Origin: Clostridia bacterium
GTDB lineage: Bacteria > Bacillota > Clostridia > UMGS1840
Length of the DNA: 64,000 nucleotides
Reading direction: 5' to 3'
NCBI GenBank assembly: GCA_045661305.1
Contig: JAZRFJ010000028.1
Location: 5,234 to 69,233 of the forward strand
The position numbers and the translations under genes are program-made. Below the pieces are notes generated by a model. That model worked only from the letters and a program-made list of their open reading frames with translations. It did no database searches and was not told the origin of the DNA. Of the stretch, positions 1,348 through 16,932 are shown piece after piece; positions within the stretch are counted from its first letter, which is position 1; the number at the start of each line of letters is the position of its first letter.

Positions 1348-1851
1348 ATGAACGAAAATTATAATCAAATAAGAATAGATGTAAGACTTGAAGACTATGA
1401 CGGAATAGTGTACAGACACTTCTGCCCATACTGCATGGAAGAAATTGAAAAATCATTGCCTTATGAGGAAAGCAGTATAGAATGTGATGTATGTAAAAAA
1501 ATCATAAATCTTAACTGGTCAAGCTATGTAGATGATATTGAAGACTATTTATCCGAAAAAATAAGATACAGTATAAAATCATCAAATGCCTACGATGATG
1601 AAGATTCGCTGACAGAAGCTTTGTGTGATGTTATCGAAGAAGTTTACCGTTCCGACGACCATGAAGAATGTTATTCGGTTGCAGAGGAAGTTGTGGAAAT
1701 AACAAGAGGCTACGAAGACGAGCATGATATTGCAAAAGAAATTATTGACATTCTCGATGTTCCGTCATTTTCAGAAGAAGACGCAGATAGCTTTTACGAA
1801 GACGATTATGAAGATGACTATAACTATAATGATGACGATGAAGAGTTTTAA
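1348..1851 (+). CDS. hypothetical, highly acidic protein with N-terminal CxxC...CxxC zinc-ribbon
   Basis: 167 aa ORF with a good RBS (AAGGAG 7 nt upstream). CPYC...CDVC motif. C-terminal half is very rich in D/E/Y (ends DDYEDDYNYNDDDEEF). No family recognised. Confidence 0.6.
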   Translation: MNENYNQIRIDVRLEDYDGIVYRHFCPYCMEEIEKSLPYEESSIECDVCKKIINLNWSSYVDDIEDYLSEKIRYSIKSSNAYDDEDSLTEALCDVIEEVYRSDDHEECYSVAEEVVEITRGYEDEHDIAKEIIDILDVPSFSEEDADSFYEDDYEDDYNYNDDDEEF

Positions 1852-3725: not shown

Positions 3726-4802
3726 GTGGTGGAAAATATAGAAACAAAAAAAAATAATTTTCAAAATTACAAAAAAAATGATAAGAAAAACAAAATTTTT
3801 AAATTTAAGTTTTATTCTCTTGTTTTCAGTATTTACATTATATTTGTAGGATATGCAAATTCGGTAGCTGAAAACGAGGTTTGCGTTTATTCAGATTTAA
3901 GAACTCAAAAACTTATTCCCTCAGGTCAGGCTGTCGCAATGAAATTAAAAACAAATGGAGTTTTGGTTGTAGGAGTAAAAAACGATGCAAATCTTCCCGC
4001 AAAAAAGGCAGGAATAAAAAACGGCGATATCATAACGATGGTAAATGATACAAAAGTTTTAAACACTGCCCATTTTGAAGAAATAATACAAGCTGCAGAT
4101 GAGAATGAAATTACGCTTTTCATAAAAAGAGATGACAAAATTTACAGTACAAATATTATTCCCCAAAAAAATAATGGTTTTTGCGAAATAGGTCTTTGGC
4201 TTCGGGACAGTGCAGCAGGAATAGGAACAGTTTCGTTTTATTCGAGTGACAAAAAGCATTTCTACGCACTGGGACATCCGATAGCTGACAGCGATACTCA
4301 AAAAAATTTTTCCGTAAGAACAGGAAGCTTAGAGCTTGTTGACATTCACGGTGCAAAAAAAGGTAAGAAAAACAATCCTGGGGAGCTTATAGGAACGATG
4401 TCCGATTACGAGATAGGAAGCATTTTAACTAATACAAATTCAGGAATTTACGGTAAAATCAAAGACAAGGGTGTAATACTTGAAAAACCTATCGAGGTAA
4501 TGAAAAAAGAAGAAGTCAAAGAAGGCAAAGCTTATATTTTCACAACTGTGAGCGACTGCGGAGTAGAAAAATTTGAAATAAAAATTTCAAAAATTTTAGA
4601 CAACAATAAAAACAAAGATTTCATTATAAAAATAACTGATAAAAAGCTTATAGAAAAAACAGGCGGAATAGTTCAGGGAATGTCGGGTTCACCGATAATT
4701 CAGAATGGCCGAATTGTGGGAGCTGTGACACATGTTTTTGTGAATGATCCAACAAGAGGTTATGGGATATTTATTGAAAATATGCTAGCGGCGTCATCAT
4801 AA
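3726..4802 (+). CDS. spoIVB: SpoIVB peptidase (S55 sporulation signalling serine protease)
   Basis: 358 aa with N-terminal membrane anchor, PDZ-like segment (GIKNGDIITMVND) and the S55 catalytic block GGIVQGMSGSPIIQNGRIVGAVTHVF. Non-ATG (GTG) start as in the track. Confidence 0.85.
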   Translation: MVENIETKKNNFQNYKKNDKKNKIFKFKFYSLVFSIYIIFVGYANSVAENEVCVYSDLRTQKLIPSGQAVAMKLKTNGVLVVGVKNDANLPAKKAGIKNGDIITMVNDTKVLNTAHFEEIIQAADENEITLFIKRDDKIYSTNIIPQKNNGFCEIGLWLRDSAAGIGTVSFYSSDKKHFYALGHPIADSDTQKNFSVRTGSLELVDIHGAKKGKKNNPGELIGTMSDYEIGSILTNTNSGIYGKIKDKGVILEKPIEVMKKEEVKEGKAYIFTTVSDCGVEKFEIKISKILDNNKNKDFIIKITDKKLIEKTGGIVQGMSGSPIIQNGRIVGAVTHVFVNDPTRGYGIFIENMLAASS

Positions 4803-4804
4803 GC

Positions 4805-4833
4805 AAAGCCCACACCGAAACGGTGTGGGCTTT
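4805..4833. terminator. GC-rich bidirectional terminator hairpin between spoIVB and the acyltransferase gene
   Basis: AAAGCCCACACCG aaa CGGTGTGGGCTTT, a perfect 13-bp stem, A/T-flanked on both sides. Confidence 0.8.
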
Positions 4834-4839
4834 ACATTG

Positions 4840-5877
4840 TTAAAATATTTTAGCTTTTTTTAATAATTTCAGAAGTTTGTCGCATATAATATGCACAATC
4901 GTTGCAAGTATCACAGTTGTTATAATTGAGAGGATAATGAAACAGCTTGAATTAATGTTTGGCAATACTTTCTCAACAATCTCGAACACAAAACAATGCA
5001 TCAAATACATTTCAAAGGAAATACTACCTAAGAAATAACTTATTTTATTACCAATTTGAATTTTTTCGTTCAGAAGTAATATAAACGCAAGAATTGCCAC
5101 ACCCAACAAAATCTTTAAAATATAGTCGCCCCAAAAAACAATATGCTTGAAAGACAGATACGATACTCCCAGGACAAGCGACGACAAGCACGCAACAGAA
5201 ACCTTCAATATCCATTTCTGACAAGAGGGTTTTTTGATGCTGTCATAATTAGCAAATAAAACTATTCCCCAAACAAAACCAATAGATTCGGTACACCATG
5301 TAGTTGTCTGAACAATTCCAATAAGTTTTAAAATATAGAGCAGTAAGCTGAAAGCAATGACAACAAAACATACAATCGGTCTGCGAAGCTTCTCTTTCCA
5401 TTTAAAACGGTAACCAATCCAAAACGCAACATAGCACACCAAAAGCCATCTTACCCACACATTGATCTGTAGCGGGCTACCTAAACGGGAACTGCCGGCA
5501 AGCAGAATCATGTCAAGCAAGATAATAACAACATTAGATATCCAGTTAGGAAGAATCAGTTTAGGCAATCTGCTGGTCCAGAACCGTTCGGTTGAATTTA
5601 TTTTTTTGCTTATACCTACAGACAAACCGTAGGCGGAAGTCATAAAGAAGAATGTAACACCAATATACGCAAAACTGCCAATCATATCCTGGATTTTATT
5701 CTGATATGCTGTTGGGATGTGAACAAGAATTACGATTAAGCACCAAAATCCACGCATCGCTTTTGTGTTGTCCATATCAAAAAAATTGTCATTGCCAGAA
5801 GAAATGTACTTTGATCCATGCGTCAGCATAAGTACCAAAAAAACAAGGATACCCATCATAATTACATAGTCAAGCAT
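4840..5877 (-). CDS. acyltransferase family 3 membrane protein (O-acyltransferase-like)
   Basis: 345 aa with about 10 predicted TM helices. The N-terminal FDMDNTKAMRGFWCLIVILVHI block resembles the acyltransferase_3 R/H motif region. RBS AGGGGG. Confidence 0.75.
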   Translation of the reverse strand: MLDYVIMMGILVFLVLMLTHGSKYISSGNDNFFDMDNTKAMRGFWCLIVILVHIPTAYQNKIQDMIGSFAYIGVTFFFMTSAYGLSVGISKKINSTERFWTSRLPKLILPNWISNVVIILLDMILLAGSSRLGSPLQINVWVRWLLVCYVAFWIGYRFKWKEKLRRPIVCFVVIAFSLLLYILKLIGIVQTTTWCTESIGFVWGIVLFANYDSIKKPSCQKWILKVSVACLSSLVLGVSYLSFKHIVFWGDYILKILLGVAILAFILLLNEKIQIGNKISYFLGSISFEMYLMHCFVFEIVEKVLPNINSSCFIILSIITTVILATIVHIICDKLLKLLKKAKIF

Positions 5878-5992
5878 ACTTTACCCCCTAATCATGAAAT
5901 TATATTTATTTAAGTCTACCAAAAAATACTAAAATTTGCAAGTAGTAATACTATTTTATAATCTGTAATGTTGTCCCCTATTGACAACACTC

Positions 5993-6100
5993 GTGTCAGG
6001 TTCACCGATACTTCAAAATGGTAAAATTATTGGTGCAGTAACTCATGTGTTTGTAAATGACCCGACAAGAGGGTATGGGATTTTTATTGAGAATATGCTC
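5993..6100 (+). pseudogene. orphan fragment of a spoIVB 3' end (36 codons, no start, frame runs into unrelated sequence)
   Basis: Aligns codon-for-codon with 4680-4787 of the intact spoIVB ([36 protein letters not shown]). My manual alignment gives 21 mismatches in 108 nt, mostly third positions. Confidence 0.75.
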
Positions 6101-6128
6101 TCTTTTTTAAACAGCCACATTTCTCTTG

Positions 6129-8072
6129 TTATTTTGTTTCTTCTTTTAAAAACACATTCCCTAAAGGTTTTAAGTTATCATAACTGTCAATAGCAAAAAC
6201 TTTTACAGTATAATCTTTAAAATCAGCAGGAATTTTCTGATATTCAAAAACATTCCCTTTGTTTCCCATTGGCTTATCCAAAATCTTTACAAGCTTGTTT
6301 CCGTTATATATTCCGCAAATAAGCGTTGTTTCATCAAGATTAACACCATCAACAACTGCCGCAATACGAACTGTATCGCCCTCGTTAAAAGTTGTTTTTT
6401 CTGCTTTACTTTCATCTGTGAAATTTACAAATGAAATATCTGTATATTTTTCATCTGTTTTTGTTATGGCTTTTATAGGGAAATTAGCACCGCCCAAGTC
6501 TGCTTCAACACGCTTATGTAAGTCGATGAATCCCACCATACCTAAAAGGTTTGGATAATAAAATGATTGCATAGGCTCACTTTTGGCATTTACTACACCC
6601 GCTTGAGATACATTTGCTTCAAAACACAAATTATGCGGCTGATATGTCGGTGAATTGGCAAGAATCAAAATTGAAAATTTTTCTGATGTTATTTGTGTAT
6701 CTTCAACATCAACAGTATGATAACCTGTATTTTCGGGAATTAATTTCCCAAATCTTATCATACTTTCCTCAAGGTTTTCAAAATACACATGATAGCCTGC
6801 ATTTTCATCTGCTTCTTTCAACTCATCATCAATCAGATATATATAATATTCAAAGCCTTCTTCAGCATAAAGAGAAATATGTGTCAAAACTTCACTTTCA
6901 GTTTTTCTTTCAAATTGGTTTCCGTAATAATTCATATAAGATAAAAATTTGTTTTCGTTCTCATCTTTTAATTCTACAGACATACTCCAATGTGAAAAAA
7001 AATCATCATACGAGTATAAAATCGTATTAGAGTTTCTTCTTTGCATTTGGGTTATAGCAAAAAGCTCATATCCTACATAGTAATCATAATAGGAAAGATA
7101 AAAAAATCCATTATCACACGCATCAGTACCCCAACTGTTTTTAACGATAAAAGCACCGTTATCAGGTGGAACTATTTCAACACCACTAACAGTATGTCTG
7201 AAATTTTCTTTATCATATGTATCATCCCATCCCACTATCAGCACAGAATGATTTGTACTAACAGTTGGGGAAGTTTCAGAAATTGGAAAATAGTATAAAT
7301 TCTTTTTCTCTGCCTGGGCAAAATAAGTGTAATTTGAATTCAAGGTACAAACTGCTGAGCCATAGGATAGTATAGCTTTTTTTAGGTCATCTCTCATTTC
7401 TGCTTTTTTATCATAATCTCTGCCATCATATTCTTTTATATCTTCATGATTGAATATCGTTCCTGTTATAATATAATCACTAAGAGGAATATTTGCAGTT
7501 TCAGAATAATCTCTGCCTTTTGCAGGCCACACAAATTCATCATCTTTTTCATTGACAAGACCTATTCTGTTTAAGAAATATGGAACAGATTTTCCATAGT
7601 TTCCTCCAGAGCCAAGAGACATATTGTGTCCAAAGGTGGTATTGTTATATCTATTTGAAACCATATATTGCATATGATTTTCGCTAAAATCATATGCATC
7701 ATTTATAGTTTTCCCATTTAGATCTAAAACAGGAAAATTTTTCAACATATAGCTTTCAGCCGCACCAAGTGCTGAAAATATCCAGCAGTTTCCACTTTCC
7801 CCTTGTGATTTAACAGGTGAAACAAATTGCAAATTATTTATGTCATCATTATATTTTGAAGGCAAATAGGCTGATTCGTTATCAAGAAATAATTTGCAAT
7901 TCAATTCACCAAGATCATACAAAACATTATCAGAATACTCTTCAACAAATATAGGCTCAGTTTCTAACCTATATGTTTCCATTATTTCAAGTCCATAGTT
8001 TTCTTCTGCATAACTCAAGGTTGTACTTGATAACATTACAATAGTTACCAAAATAACAAAAAACCTCTTCAT
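6129..8072 (-). CDS. secreted papain-like cysteine peptidase (C1 family) with long C-terminal extension
   Basis: 647 aa with signal peptide ([22 protein letters not shown]). Catalytic Cys in [12 protein letters not shown], His in [11 protein letters not shown], and the KNSWG motif. About 250 aa of beta-rich C-terminal region. Confidence 0.8.
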
Positions 8073-8183: not shown

Positions 8184-9329
8184 CTATTTAAAATAATCTT
8201 TCAATGTACTAAAGAAGCTTTTTCTTTTAGCGTGATTACTGCTTTCACATGCTTCATCAAACTTTTTAAGTAATTCCTTTTGTTTTTGGTTAAGCTTCTT
8301 TGGAATTTCAACCTTAACAATTACATACTGATTTCCGACTCCGCCGCCTCTTAAGTATGGAATGCCCTTTCCTTTAAGCATAAATTTTGCACCGTGCTGT
8401 GTTCCCTCAGGAATTGTCATTTCAATTTTTCCGTTTATTGCAGGAACAATAACTTTACCGCCAAGTGCTGCCTCTGCATATGTTATAGGAAGTTCAACAT
8501 AAATATCAAAGCCTGAACGCTGGAAAATTTTATCAGGTGTTACATTAACCTCGATATAAAGGTCGCCCATAGGTCCATTGTTTTTACCCGGTTCACCTTC
8601 ACCTCTTAGGGTTATTGCCTGACCGTCATCTATACCTGCAGGAATATTAATTTCCAGCTTCTTTGTTTTCCTTTCAACACCATTACCGTTACAGGTTTTA
8701 CATGGTTCTTTTATAATTTTACCTGTACCATTACAATTTGGACAAGTACCTGTTGTCTGAATATTTCCAATAGGTGTTCTCTGAACTTTTCTTACAGTAC
8801 CGCTTCCGTTACAGTTTGAACAAGTTTCAGGGCTTGTGCCTTTTCTTGCACCGCTTCCCATACAGTCTGAACATCTTTCATTTTTAGTTATTGAAATTTC
8901 TTTTTTTACACCAAAAACAGATTCTTTAAATGAAATAGTAACAGCCTTTTGTAAATCTCTTCCTCTTTGCGGACCGTTTCTTCTTGATGAGCCACCTCCA
9001 CCAAAGCCTCCGAAACCACCGCCGAAGAAGGAATCAAATATATCACTAAAATCACCAAAGCCTCCAAATCCACCGCCAAAACCGCCTCCGCCTGCCGTCT
9101 GGTCAAAAGCTGCATGACCAAACTGGTCATACTGCTGTCTTTTTTGAGAGTCAGACAAAACGGCATAAGCTTCATTTGCTTCTTTGAATTTAGCTTCAGC
9201 CTCTTTATCACCAGGGTGCAAGTCAGGATGGTACTGCTTTGCAACCTTTCTGTATGCTTTTTTTAAATCGTCCTCAGTAGCACTTTTAGAAACACCGAGG
9301 ACTTCATAATAATCTCTTTTTTCCGCCAT
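8184..9329 (-). CDS. dnaJ: molecular chaperone DnaJ
   Basis: J domain (YYEVLGV...HPD), G/F-rich linker and four CxxCxGxG zinc motifs. I place the start at MAEKRDYY (9329) rather than the track start at 9356. Confidence 0.95.
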
Positions 9330-9410
9330 CTGTTTTCTGCCTTTCACAACATTCAATCATCGGAGAGTCGAACTCAAACAGTTCAGCTCCCCGATGACTC
9401 TTAGTCTGTT

Positions 9411-16711: not shown

Positions 16712-16728
16712 TTCGACACAATTCTTAC
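16712..16728 (-). promoter_or_regulatory. Spo0A-box-like site (GTAAGAA ttg TGTCGAA) upstream of 16143-16679
   Basis: Perfect TGTCGAA on minus (16718-16712) with a degenerate partner 3 bp upstream. TGGTATATAAT (extended -10-like) follows immediately downstream. Confidence 0.4.
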
Positions 16729-16913
16729 TCGTGTCAAGTCAGGAGAACAGTGAATAATAGGAACTACTATTTTTGCCCTATTTTTTCAACTGTTTTTCTT
16801 TTAACACTTTTCCCTAGAACCCGTGAGAACACTGGATTTTCTCGCATTCGATAGTATATGTAAATATCAAAATCGGCAAACTAATCTTTTAAATTGTATG
16901 GACTTGACACGAG
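16728..16913. repeat. repeat family R2, copy B: 186-bp unit with perfect 13-bp terminal inverted repeats
   Basis: CTCGTGTCAAGTC (16728-16740) and GACTTGACACGAG (16901-16913) are exact reverse complements. Internal hairpin at 16823-16845. The unit ends 20 nt from the stop codon of 16933-17541. Confidence 0.85.
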
Positions 16914-16932
16914 TAACATGAATTTTAATTCT

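Follow-up and report, generated by a model that had tools for sequence, protein, structure and literature searches.

A probable recombinase-less mobile cassette at the catalytic-motif codons of spoIVB in Clostridia and its proposed link to elements with three serine recombinases

Introduction

Staphylococcal SCC elements use attachment sites formed by two half-sites around a central dinucleotide, and they build tandem composite islands in which some members lack a recombinase (bioRxiv 10.64898/2026.03.31.715619; bioRxiv 10.1101/336396). CIMEs retain attL and attR without integration or transfer genes; together with functional elements they form tandem arrays at a target gene's 3′ end and offer a resident att site that newcomers enter (PMC5704250). 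In streptococcal ICEs with serine integrase triplets, the element end next to the target carries three large serine recombinase (LSR) genes in the same orientation, whose orthologues group according to their place within the trio (Ambroset et al. 2016, PMC4701971). These ICEs disrupt the targets mutT, traG, and hsdM and have direct repeats of 2-8 bp; recombinase-less cassettes on the same sites, as found here, are not described for them (PMC4701971).

The locus examined here is the spoIVB region of a 64-kb stretch of clostridial DNA, analysed as a whole and referred to as the window. Its closest analogues are the SCC composite islands and the CIMEs. With SCC/SCCmec at rlmH (orfX), including pseudo-SCC without ccr genes, it shares half-sites around a dinucleotide and tandem accumulation in arrays with recombinase-less members; likewise, the 3′ end of a conserved gene is targeted and the gene, here the spoIVB ORF, is kept intact. 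The differences concern the hosts (staphylococci versus gut Clostridia), the target (rlmH versus the catalytic-motif codons of spoIVB), the number of recombinases (one or two versus three in tandem), the core (GA versus a putative TG), and the extent of replacement, which is limited to a few terminal codons in SCC and reaches about 120 nt here (40 codons, including the GMSGSP serine codon). The LSR trio and Ccr have Pfam domains in common, and the comparison between them is one of those domains only.

The resemblance to CIMEs lies in an insert flanked by attL and attR that lacks integration and transfer genes, and a near relative (locus L191) displays such accretion at the very site occupied in the window. 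Described CIMEs, however, depend on tyrosine integrases and are seen as decay products, whereas serine-type recombinases are implicated here, the cassettes measure just 0.5-4.5 kb, 13 recombinase-less inserts contain no recombinase debris, and one cassette occurs in several hosts. The related large elements resemble the streptococcal triplet ICEs in their co-oriented trio and its positional clustering; in contrast to these, an element-borne end restores the target, and a diverged repeat of 108-130 nt results.

LSR elements inside sporulation genes of endospore formers are represented by skin in sigK (SpoIVCA) and SPbeta in spsM (SprA), which interrupt the gene until programmed excision in the mother cell rebuilds it. 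Here an LSR-type site also lies in a sporulation gene, but spoIVB keeps its reading frame (358 aa, full S55 domain) and therefore does not depend on excision to function. Integron cassette arrays are similar in layout only: their units are small and promoter-poor, hold one to three genes, end in a conserved recombination site, and are added at a fixed chromosomal location; an IntI tyrosine recombinase, an attC hairpin, and an adjacent integrase gene are all missing here. The literature searched on spoIVB in combination with serine recombinase, with attB, and with integration site plus prophage contains no description of this gene as an integration target.

Organization of the spoIVB Locus

The spoIVB ORF is uninterrupted, and the S55 profile is matched over positions 3-210 of its 210. 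The features of the locus are as follows, with the assignments at the junctions being putative.

3726-4802, + strand: spoIVB, 358 aa (Peptidase_S55, 1.7e-78)
3726-4680, + strand: native spoIVB body (PDZ plus S55 peptidase), ending with the first base (A) of the G-M-S-G-S-P Met codon
about 4655-4680 (~25 nt), + strand: presumed chromosomal left arm of the attachment site, codons T-G-G-I-V-Q-G, the last of the native body
4681-4682, + strand: putative crossover dinucleotide TG of the left junction (attL), placed by the drop in identity to L001 and by the right-junction breakpoints
4683-4802, + strand: in-frame spoIVB 3′ end read as imported, encoding S-G-S-P...ENMLAASS-stop (phylogenetic discordance)
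4806-4832, no strand: strong GC-rich hairpin in the gap where spoIVB and the acyltransferase gene converge, part of the cassette, presumed terminator
4840-5877, − strand: Acyl_transf_3 gene for a membrane O-acyltransferase of the OafA/YrhL type, cassette cargo (Pfam PF01757, 5.8e-21)
5878-5968, no strand: non-coding cassette stretch on the 5′ side of the acyltransferase gene, with 98.9% identity to L191 and L192
5969-5993, + strand: element right arm, P-arm motif TGTTGTCCCCTATTGACAACACTC plus G, presumed serine recombinase half-site
5994-5995, + strand: putative crossover dinucleotide TG of the right junction (attR), placed by the end of window-L195 identity and by 47 junction pairs
5996-6103, + strand: spoIVB 3′ end read as native and displaced, a pseudogene fragment with its tail deleted (95/108 versus the in-frame end of L001)
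6104-6131, no strand: what is left of the native spoIVB terminator (right arm) together with sequence downstream of it, 49 nt missing relative to L001 by global alignment
6129-8072, − strand: gene for a secreted C1 (papain-family) peptidase, native neighbour outside the insert (Pfam Peptidase_C1, 1.8e-14)
8184-9356, − strand: dnaJ, beyond the C1 peptidase gene

A codon-by-codon comparison of 4680-4787 with 5993-6100 gave 21 differences in 108 nt, of which 17 are synonymous and 4 change the amino acid (M>V, I>L, R>K, V>I). An independent repeat search recovered the same pair as a direct repeat (4681-4786 / 5994-6099) with 82% identity and a spacing of 1313 nt. The preliminary description had reported precisely this diverged repeat, and its view that the divergence arose under purifying selection in separate lineages holds. 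The similarity begins exactly at the Met codon and ends after ENML. Because the fragment at 5993-6100 matches a relative with a blastn E-value of 3e-36, the repeat is not a product of chance.

The acyltransferase-3 gene noted earlier between the two copies is confirmed by its Pfam match, and a protein 99% identical to its product bears the JGI name 'peptidoglycan/LPS O-acetylase OafA/YrhL'; its role is probably the O-acetylation of a surface glycan. No record identical to the window SpoIVB was returned by an exact-protein look-up, and homologues were used instead. The structure once described as a GC-rich bidirectional terminator is a real hairpin (−23.3 kcal/mol, z = −6.9), but it lacks a following T-run and so escapes a simple terminator scan; Rfam gave sub-threshold matches only. 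L191, L192, L196, and L199 share the hairpin along with the cassette, at 92-96% conservation, even beside a 77%-identical acyltransferase gene. A foreign base composition of the insert was considered and rejected: its GC content (0.33-0.38) equals that of the surroundings, and the GC check of the block is therefore uninformative on origin.

Origin of the Two spoIVB Ends

In the sister locus L001 the site is empty: spoIVB ends in ...ENMLSHTEN-stop and is followed by the native terminator (hairpin of −19.4 kcal/mol) and the peptidase gene, with no insert. The window spoIVB body is 91.8% identical to L001 over the 700 nt before 4680; measured per 54 nt, identity is 0.83-1.0 up to 4671 and 0.80-0.81 from 4672 on. 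The out-of-frame fragment agrees with L001 at 95 of 108 positions and the in-frame end at 87, and at the 21 discordant positions L001 has the nucleotide of the fragment in 14 cases and that of the in-frame end in 6. Conversely, the in-frame end matches the copies of L003 and L105 at 95-96 of 108 positions, despite gene bodies that are only 77-78% identical. Downstream, the fragment is joined to the remnant of the native terminator, and the displaced fragment of L191 retains the sister tail ...ENMLSHTEN-stop, identical to L001. Taken together, these comparisons indicate that the fragment at 5993-6100 is the resident spoIVB 3′ end pushed out of frame, and that the in-frame end (...ENMLAASS-stop) is the import. 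The latter (4683-4802) travels with the cassette in L191 and L192 and includes the serine codon of the GMSGSP motif, which we take to encode the catalytic serine.

The wider neighbourhood requires two adjustments to what had been described. The C1 peptidase gene, formerly assigned to an accessory block, is a native neighbour present in both L191 (94.6% identical) and L001, whose products have at the C-terminus a Cys-rich extension of ~110 aa not found in the window peptidase. The absence of spo0A beside spoIVB is correct, and none exists anywhere in the 64-kb window; nevertheless, spo0A is also not adjacent to spoIVB in L001, L002, L103, L105, and L107. Since close relatives share this condition, it represents a lineage trait rather than an effect of the insert. 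In other Clostridia, the same element family sits between spoIVB and spo0A.

Junction Anatomy and the Conserved Motif

Window positions 4681-5995 very probably constitute a small integrated mobile cassette without a recombinase gene, whose attL (4681) and attR (5994) yield the 'duplicated' spoIVB end; this degree of confidence applies to the whole explanation, that is, the spoIVB-site cassette plus the LSR-trio element family. The cassette measures ~1.3 kb and comprises the in-frame spoIVB end, the hairpin, the acyltransferase gene, and a 24-nt motif (5969-5992). Its sole gene is that of the acyltransferase; both junctions are intact, and integration and transfer genes are absent.

The motif consists of an A-rich tract followed by TGTTGTCC-N4-5-TTGACA-N-CACTC, with a spacer too variable for an exact pattern. 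It lies before displaced spoIVB ends in more than 80 loci of very divergent Clostridia, and its single occurrence in the window compares with 0 expected by chance. Every displaced spoIVB end behind a recombinase-less insert (16 junctions) has it directly 5′, as do those behind an LSR trio (45 distinct junctions), and it is conserved alike beside both. Relative to the breakpoint, it occupies positions −24 to −1.

The breakpoint itself can be mapped closely. When the same element arm was compared next to different host copies, the first difference fell at position 4 or later in 47/47 junction pairs; element-linked sequence at the right junctions stops before position 4 of the copy, and across hosts the post-motif sequence varies by host and not by element. 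The window cassette and that of L195 are 99.3% identical up to a point exactly after ...CACTC GTG. These limits place the breakpoints within the Met codon of G-M-S-G-S-P, at its TG, which is the likely exact crossover. An element half-site about 20-25 bp from a short core, with element and host sequence meeting at a fixed point, is a feature of LSR att sites.

Distribution of the Cassette and Allelic Series

An allelic series is available at this site: L001 is empty, the window holds the cassette, and L191 is doubly occupied, with an LSR-trio element at the window's left junction. The order in L191 is LSR2, LSR3, the motif, the window in-frame copy (97%), the acyltransferase gene, the motif again, and the native fragment ending in SHTEN-stop; this locus is near-conspecific, and its cassette is 98.7% identical. 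In L192 and L193, a 99% identical cassette is followed by a different host end and a convergent spo0A. The same cassette, at 99% identity, therefore abuts three different host spoIVB ends (window, L192, and L195), that of L195 being very different. More distant hosts carry acyltransferase genes with 93%, 77%, and 67% nucleotide identity beside spoIVB; the first two versions share the window layout, and the third lies further along a multi-insert array. Such occurrences suggest that the cassette is mobile and is presumably moved by recombinases encoded elsewhere. The earlier preference for horizontal insertion over local duplication is consequently well founded, in view of the empty site in L001, the conserved junction motif, and the link to LSR trios.

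Among the matches listed, 12 of 83 spoIVB loci contain one to three extra same-strand 3′-end copies and hence arrays of two to four spoIVB ends; these 83 are mostly species representatives with SpoIVB 37-47% identical to that of the window, and they show breadth rather than sister-strain synteny. The closer relatives L105 and L106 have one extra copy each. The truncated extra copies start at the Met codon except in three cases (L008, L018, and L022), and all but two of them have the same non-coding motif in front. The recombinase-less cassettes range from 0.5 to 4.5 kb. No LSR remnants were found in 13 recombinase-less inserts, nor any recombinase family among 25 listed of the 43 Pfam families detected in 35 cargo ORFs.

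The copies are patchy mosaics, as in the leading copy of L192; those of the window and L191 differ only at nt 1-24, and in several loci two copies are nearly identical to each other. Mosaic copies are not predicted by one clean crossover, so gene conversion or RecA-dependent exchange between repeats must be invoked, and homologous exchange of this kind could add to the spread of the cassette.

Elements with Three Serine Recombinases

Six IMG/VR contigs and GenBank MT836038 display the order LSR1-LSR2-LSR3, motif, fragment, host genes, and each LSR scanned carries Resolvase, Recombinase, and Zn_ribbon_recom domains. A further 80 metagenomic loci were retrieved with LSR3 alone as the query; the fragment lies ~40-600 nt downstream of LSR3 in 66-69 of them and at ~1.7 kb in one. 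The LSR1-2-3 order is kept in 6/6 viral contigs and in the metagenomic loci long enough for all three genes. Positional counterparts are 44-63% identical across elements, compared with ~30% among the three recombinases.

The near-conspecific L191, like about 75 related loci, thus has LSR genes beside the att site. There is none in the window insert or anywhere in the 64 kb, which indicates that the window unit uses the sites and is not an autonomous LSR element. A full spoIVB within 10 kb upstream was found in 0/80 LSR loci, and no single contig holds a complete LSR-trio element with both junctions; for this reason, the left end of the large elements is deduced from the small cassettes.

Proposed Mechanism

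A clostridial family of integrative elements carries three tandem LSR genes at its right end, followed by the conserved arm, and would integrate in spoIVB at the TG of the Met codon within the catalytic-site motif G-M-S-G-S-P. The left end of each element would bring its own copy of the last ~40 spoIVB codons, from the GMSGSP serine codon onward. By virtue of this element-borne end, spoIVB would stay intact while the native end would come to lie beyond the element, no longer in frame. Since the new left junction would resemble the empty target, further elements could integrate there, so that tandem arrays form in which the latest arrival lies closest to spoIVB. The window unit, which has both arms but no recombinase, would have been moved by a trio supplied from elsewhere.

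At the level of sequence alignment, the junction anatomy, the LSR-trio link, the breakpoint position, the empty, occupied, and doubly occupied series, and the same cassette at different host ends are all documented. The LSR trio would be the catalyst of the reaction. It is also conceivable, with the balance tilting slightly toward doubt, that the catalytic-motif codon of spoIVB anchors an SCC- or integron-like gene-capture platform in gut Clostridia; in that case, the 0.5-4.5 kb recombinase-less cassettes, each with a spoIVB end and a 24-nt arm, would be the true mobile units, excised, exchanged between species, and stacked by trios supplied from elsewhere. On this view, the three recombinases may each serve one of three unlike half-sites, namely the chromosomal left arm, the element arm, and the shared spoIVB-coding arm.

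Alternative Explanations

One alternative, unlikely but deserving serious weight, is that the insert is an inert deletion remnant of an LSR-trio element that decayed in place. The acyltransferase unit would then never have been mobile alone, and its other occurrences would reflect vertical descent or homologous recombination through the 108-nt spoIVB repeats on either side. In its favour, decay of ICEs or IMEs is the usual account of CIMEs (PMC5704250), the window lacks a recombinase, and the mosaic copies attest to homologous exchange between repeats. Nevertheless, the cassette remains 99% identical in L195, L192, and the window yet meets three different host ends, and the identity with L195 stops exactly at the GTG crossover, not inside the repeat. 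Moreover, the 13 recombinase-less inserts contain no LSR pseudogene debris, although a clean internal deletion would leave none, and the arm motif is equally conserved beside inserts and LSR trios.

The preliminary description had taken the fragment at 5993-6100 as foreign, arriving with the accessory block, and the in-frame end as native. The mostly synonymous differences do imply that at least one copy evolved elsewhere. This assignment is, however, very improbable: L001, with a gene body 92% identical, is closer to the fragment (95 versus 87 of 108), which runs into native downstream sequence and keeps the SHTEN-stop sister tail in L191, and the post-motif sequence varies with the host, not the element.

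A similarly slight probability attaches to the motif acting as a single-stranded hairpin, with cassettes moved by an ssDNA mechanism (integron attC-like, IS200/IS605-like, or Xer/IMEX-like) instead of by LSRs. The inverted repeat TGTTGTC...GACAACA and the small recombinase-less cassettes in arrays, like those of integrons, count in its favour. The motif nevertheless folds no better than shuffles (z = −1.03), and its pairing is lost in variants such as those of L025, L052, and L047. Neither tyrosine recombinase nor HUH transposase families occur among the 25 listed of 43 cargo Pfam families or in the scanned trio-adjacent ORFs. The motif also lies 1-24 nt from the breakpoint, as expected of an LSR half-site, and the trios precede it directly in about 70 loci. 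Finally, a local tandem duplication of the spoIVB end with divergence and later insertion of the acyltransferase gene, although in keeping with direct repeats 1.3 kb apart, is scarcely credible given a 19% difference between the copies against 8% for the sister lineage over the gene body, a conserved non-coding motif at the same junction in more than 80 loci of distant taxa, the link of the junction to LSR trios, and the empty site in L001.

Significance

With the recombinase-less mobile cassette as the preferred reading, spoIVB emerges as an integration hotspot: roughly one in seven sampled Clostridia, among the matches listed, carries extra DNA at a position predictable from sequence alone. 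This would explain the hypervariable spoIVB neighbourhood as well as the separation of spoIVB and spo0A in some genomes. After integration, the GMSGSP serine codon and the C-terminal 40 residues of SpoIVB would be element-encoded, an unusually intimate way to spare an essential sporulation checkpoint gene. The data also provide candidate natural attB/attP sequences for a large triple-LSR family, together with natural recombinase-less substrates. The role of three recombinases per element becomes directly testable here, and the trios are potential genome-engineering tools for gut Firmicutes.

Additional Observations

Several candidates were set aside. A replication terminus or dif site at ~4800, considered for a change of GC-skew sign, was rejected, as the skew follows gene strand all along the window. 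The strict-motif match in viral contigs (L084) is due to chance, with no spoIVB fragment after the motif, and the 'viral' or phage records L085-L096, L108, and L109 are ordinary complete spoIVB genes rather than attachment sites. Shared cargo was discarded as evidence of mobility in the glycyl-radical inserts of L002 and L025, which are alike in layout but independent, because their proteins are just 25-46% identical. A 10-mer at the right junction shared with the R2 inverted repeat (16727/16905), previously suspected to be coincidental, is at chance level: with ≤1 mismatch allowed it has 4 matches where 1.7 are expected, and a count of 4 is reached in 12 of 100 shuffles.

The cargo across cassettes includes acyltransferases, AraC-type-regulated sugar-utilisation modules, glycyl-radical enzymes, and ATPases. 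In L138, the ~6.6 kb upstream of the trio encode a two-component system, a Y-family polymerase, a GNAT protein, and a methyltransferase.

The repeated 3' end of spoIVB

The feature at the 3' end of spoIVB is an insertion that resembles known mobile systems but is apparently undescribed at this gene. The last 36 conserved codons of spoIVB (4680-4787, the in-frame end) are present again at 5993-6100 (the fragment), and a codon comparison gave 21 of 108 nucleotides unlike and four amino-acid changes. A repeat search found the same pair independently (82% identity, 1313 nt apart), so that the diverged second end of the preliminary description is borne out. The features concerned are as follows.

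Features at the spoIVB repeat
3726-4802 (+): spoIVB, 358 aa, PDZ and S55 peptidase domains
4806-4832: hairpin between the two copies, -23.3 kcal/mol, z = -6.9
4840-5877 (-): Acyl_transf_3 gene between the two copies
6129-8072 (-): C1 peptidase gene past the second copy

Together with the peptidase gene, dnaJ also lies beyond the second copy. Genes converge at about 4800, where GC skew switches sign; a replication terminus placed at this change (4600-5000) was rejected, since skew tracks gene strand throughout the window. Elsewhere, 1348-1851 (+), upstream of a sodium:solute symporter gene, encodes a very acidic, Cys-containing protein of 167 aa that had no match in a Pfam search. A perfect 16-nt inverted repeat, TTACTCGTGTCAAGTC / GACTTGACACGAGTAA, occupies 16725-16740 and 16901-16916, with its arms 160 nt apart. 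The 10-mer common to this repeat (R2) and the junction before the fragment had been considered possibly coincidental, and its occurrence is indeed at chance level.

Which copy is native

In L001, a sister lineage, the body of the corresponding gene is 91.8% identical to that of the window spoIVB. A comparison of both window ends with this sister gene, as suggested earlier, places the fragment closer (95 of 108 nucleotides, vs 87 of 108 for the in-frame end), and L001 sides with the fragment at 14 of the 21 discordant sites and with the in-frame end at six. Per 54-nt window, identity to L001 is 0.83-1.0 until 4671 and 0.80-0.81 afterwards. The in-frame end is closest to copies in the relatives L003 and L105 (95-96 of 108), whose gene bodies are only 77-78% identical. 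Past the fragment, 6104-6131 aligns with the right arm of the native L001 terminator and the sequence following it, while a 49-nt deletion relative to L001 has taken the last spoIVB codons and the left arm of the terminator. On account of the identity to L001, the discordant sites and the downstream match, the fragment is identified as the displaced native end, and 4683-5993 as the insert, here termed the cassette.

The preliminary description had favored horizontal insertion over local duplication, with the fragment arriving from another lineage. The insertion stands, but its direction is reversed, since the sister comparison and the terminator remnant identify the fragment as native. Nor does the accessory block extend through the C1 peptidase as had been claimed: this gene is a native neighbor, also found in L001 and in L191, a near-conspecific contig. 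At its 3' end (6129-6200), the window peptidase gene is without the Cys-rich C-terminal extension of about 110 aa found in L191 and L001; because these orthologues continue into the extension, a stretch of about 330 nt is deduced to have been lost from within the window gene.

These loci form an allelic series. L001 represents the empty site, where spoIVB (...ENMLSHTEN-stop) is followed by the terminator and the peptidase gene, and the window represents the site occupied by the cassette. In L191, whose peptidase gene and cassette are 94.6% and 98.7% identical to those of the window, the order begins with two large serine recombinase genes (LSR2 and LSR3, of the LSR1-LSR2-LSR3 tandem, or trio, of related larger elements), the 24-nt motif that directly precedes the fragment in the window (5969-5992), and a copy 97% identical to the window in-frame end with an AASS-stop tail. 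It continues with the hairpin, the acyltransferase gene, the motif, the native fragment with its SHTEN-stop tail and the peptidase gene. This arrangement shows that a trio element has inserted where the left junction lies in the window. Such double occupancy is what the insertion model would predict if the left junction still acts as a target.

Recurrence across Clostridia and the junction motif

In L002, a close relative with SpoIVB 83% identical to that of the window, two additional spoIVB 3'-end copies lie downstream of the intact gene, both directly preceded by the sequence of window 5969-5992. Among the matches listed, 12 of 83 spoIVB loci carry one to three extra same-strand 3'-end copies 0.5-4.5 kb downstream; 80 of the 83 represent species of Oscillospiraceae and other Clostridia, with SpoIVB only 37-47% identical to the window's. 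A single extra copy is also present in both L105 and L106, which are closer relatives. With three exceptions (L008, L018 and L022), truncated copies start at the Met codon of G-M-S-G-S-P, and before all but two of the Met-starting copies lie an A-rich tract and TGTTGTCC-N4-5-TTGACA-N-CACTC. This motif occurs once in the window, against 0 expected by chance.

The cargo between copies is mixed, comprising AraC-type regulators, glycyl-radical enzymes with activases, KDPG aldolase with PfkB kinase, AAA ATPases, XRE regulators and an acyltransferase; recombinase families were absent among the 25 listed of 43 Pfam families matched. The densest array seen (L018:10850-13300) holds four spoIVB-end copies in 2.4 kb, with cassettes of only 0.5-1 kb and one small ORF each, including an AAA-type kinase-like protein. 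In two unrelated loci (L121:7452-7520 and L160:5396-5465), the fragment is cut short after its ...CATGTG codons by a foreign sequence almost identical in both, TG(A/T)GTACGCCCATGATAC, possibly one end of a further element that inserts within the fragment.

The crossover was mapped on 47 junction pairs with a common element arm (at most one mismatch in 40 nt) and different host copies. The first difference fell at copy position 4 or later in these pairs and never at positions 1-3. Position 1 is attributed to the element because it is frequently G or C, while the host codon is invariably ATG. Together, these breakpoints and the element-owned first position point to an exchange at the TG of the Met codon. 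Relative to an exchange placed there, the motif spans -24 to -1, a length that fits a half-site of a serine recombinase. The putative attB would correspond to about 4655-4710, and the putative attP to 5945-5995 joined to 4683-4720. The circular cassette junction would then read ...TTGACAACACTC-G/TG/-TCGGGTTCACC...AASS-stop, and the restored empty site GGIVQG-A/TG/-native end...SHTEN-stop, slashes enclosing the exchanged TG.

Large serine recombinase trios

In six IMG/VR contigs, only the fragment is present; it opens at the Met or the Ser codon, and the same motif again stands before it. Adjoining it upstream, on the same strand, are three tandem genes of about 530-590 aa; each trio protein scanned has Resolvase, Recombinase and Zn_ribbon_recom domains. 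Trio order is kept in all six, each protein sharing 44-63% identity with its positional counterpart and about 30% with the other two. GenBank MT836038 runs from trio to motif, fragment and host cobalamin genes, which is the right junction of an integrated element.

When 80 metagenomic loci were fetched by third-recombinase alignment alone, without spoIVB as query, the fragment was found about 40-600 nt downstream of the third recombinase in 66-69 of them, and at about 1.7 kb in one; most of the remaining contigs stop just beyond this gene. No full spoIVB occurred within 10 kb upstream in any of the 80, which places the large elements above about 8.5 kb; both ends of one were never seen on a single contig among the loci examined. 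On the insertion model, the far end of a trio element would lie in spoIVB and bring along a S-G-S-P...stop segment of its own. Beside one trio (L138:474-6365) are a two-component system, a Y-family (ImpB/UmuC) polymerase with a YolD-like protein, a GNAT protein and a SAM methyltransferase. This cargo looks ICE/IME-like rather than phage-like, although IMG/VR classes related contigs as viral.

Movement of the cassette

The unit from AASS-stop tail to motif was found again in L192/L193 and L195 at 97-99% identity. In L192/L193, the unit comes after another motif and is followed by an unlike host end (...ENMLAEA-stop) and a convergent spo0A; in L195, identity ends exactly past ...CACTC GTG, where a host end of very different sequence begins. 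Acyltransferase genes 93%, 77% and 67% identical (nucleotide) to the window's also adjoin or neighbor spoIVB elsewhere, the first two (L196 and L199) in the window layout and the third (L201/L202) further along a multi-insert array. The spoIVB bodies of these contigs gave no blastn alignment with the window's. LSR remnants were found in 0 of 13 recombinase-less inserts, beside which the arm motif is as well conserved as beside trios. From these comparisons, we conclude that the cassette, which encodes no recombinase, is a mobile unit exploiting the sites of the trio, and we infer its mobilization by recombinases encoded elsewhere. Any trio elsewhere in the genome of the window could then serve as helper.

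Patchy mosaic copies do not fit this model. The leading copy in L192 has segments alternately like the window fragment and the window in-frame end. Differences are confined to nt 1-24 between the window in-frame copy and the displaced copy of L191, and to nt 1-12 between the L196 and L197 copies; within each of the loci L025, L049, L051, L052 and L083, the paired copies are near-identical past the first 6-12 nt. Gene conversion between direct repeats, sparing the edge by the unrelated flank, would explain the mosaics, in which case homologous exchange may also help the cassette to spread.

Relation to known systems

The system works much as staphylococcal SCC composite islands do, with which it shares serine recombinases, a conserved gene whose 3' end is preserved, tandem arrays and members that lack recombinase genes (bioRxiv 10.64898/2026.03.31.715619; bioRxiv 10.1101/336396). 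The spoIVB cassette arrays also resemble CIME accretion (PMC5704250). Streptococcal ICEs use serine-integrase triplets, disrupting their targets and leaving 2-8-bp repeats (PMC4701971). Unlike skin- and SPbeta-type intervening elements, the insert leaves spoIVB intact, and unlike an integron, it has no attC hairpin and no IntI. Searches of the literature outside subscription journals found no paper that connects spoIVB with serine recombinases, with attB or with the integration of prophages. Beyond the window, these loci reveal a widespread, apparently undescribed integration hotspot and define natural sites for triple serine recombinases.

Position of spo0A

In many Clostridia, spo0A lies 3' of spoIVB on the same strand. 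In six trio loci (L113, L168, L175, L177, L186 and L190), it comes about 0.15-1 kb beyond the displaced fragment; in those genomes, the trio element is located between the spoIVB body and spo0A, which indicates that trio elements can separate the two genes. The 64-kb window contains no spo0A, in agreement with its reported absence from the usual place, but the insert is not the cause: none of the close relatives examined has spo0A beside spoIVB, so its absence here is a lineage trait. In L192:46-810 and L036:7970-8734, spo0A and spoIVB converge rather than running in the same direction, unlike the Bacillus-type order.
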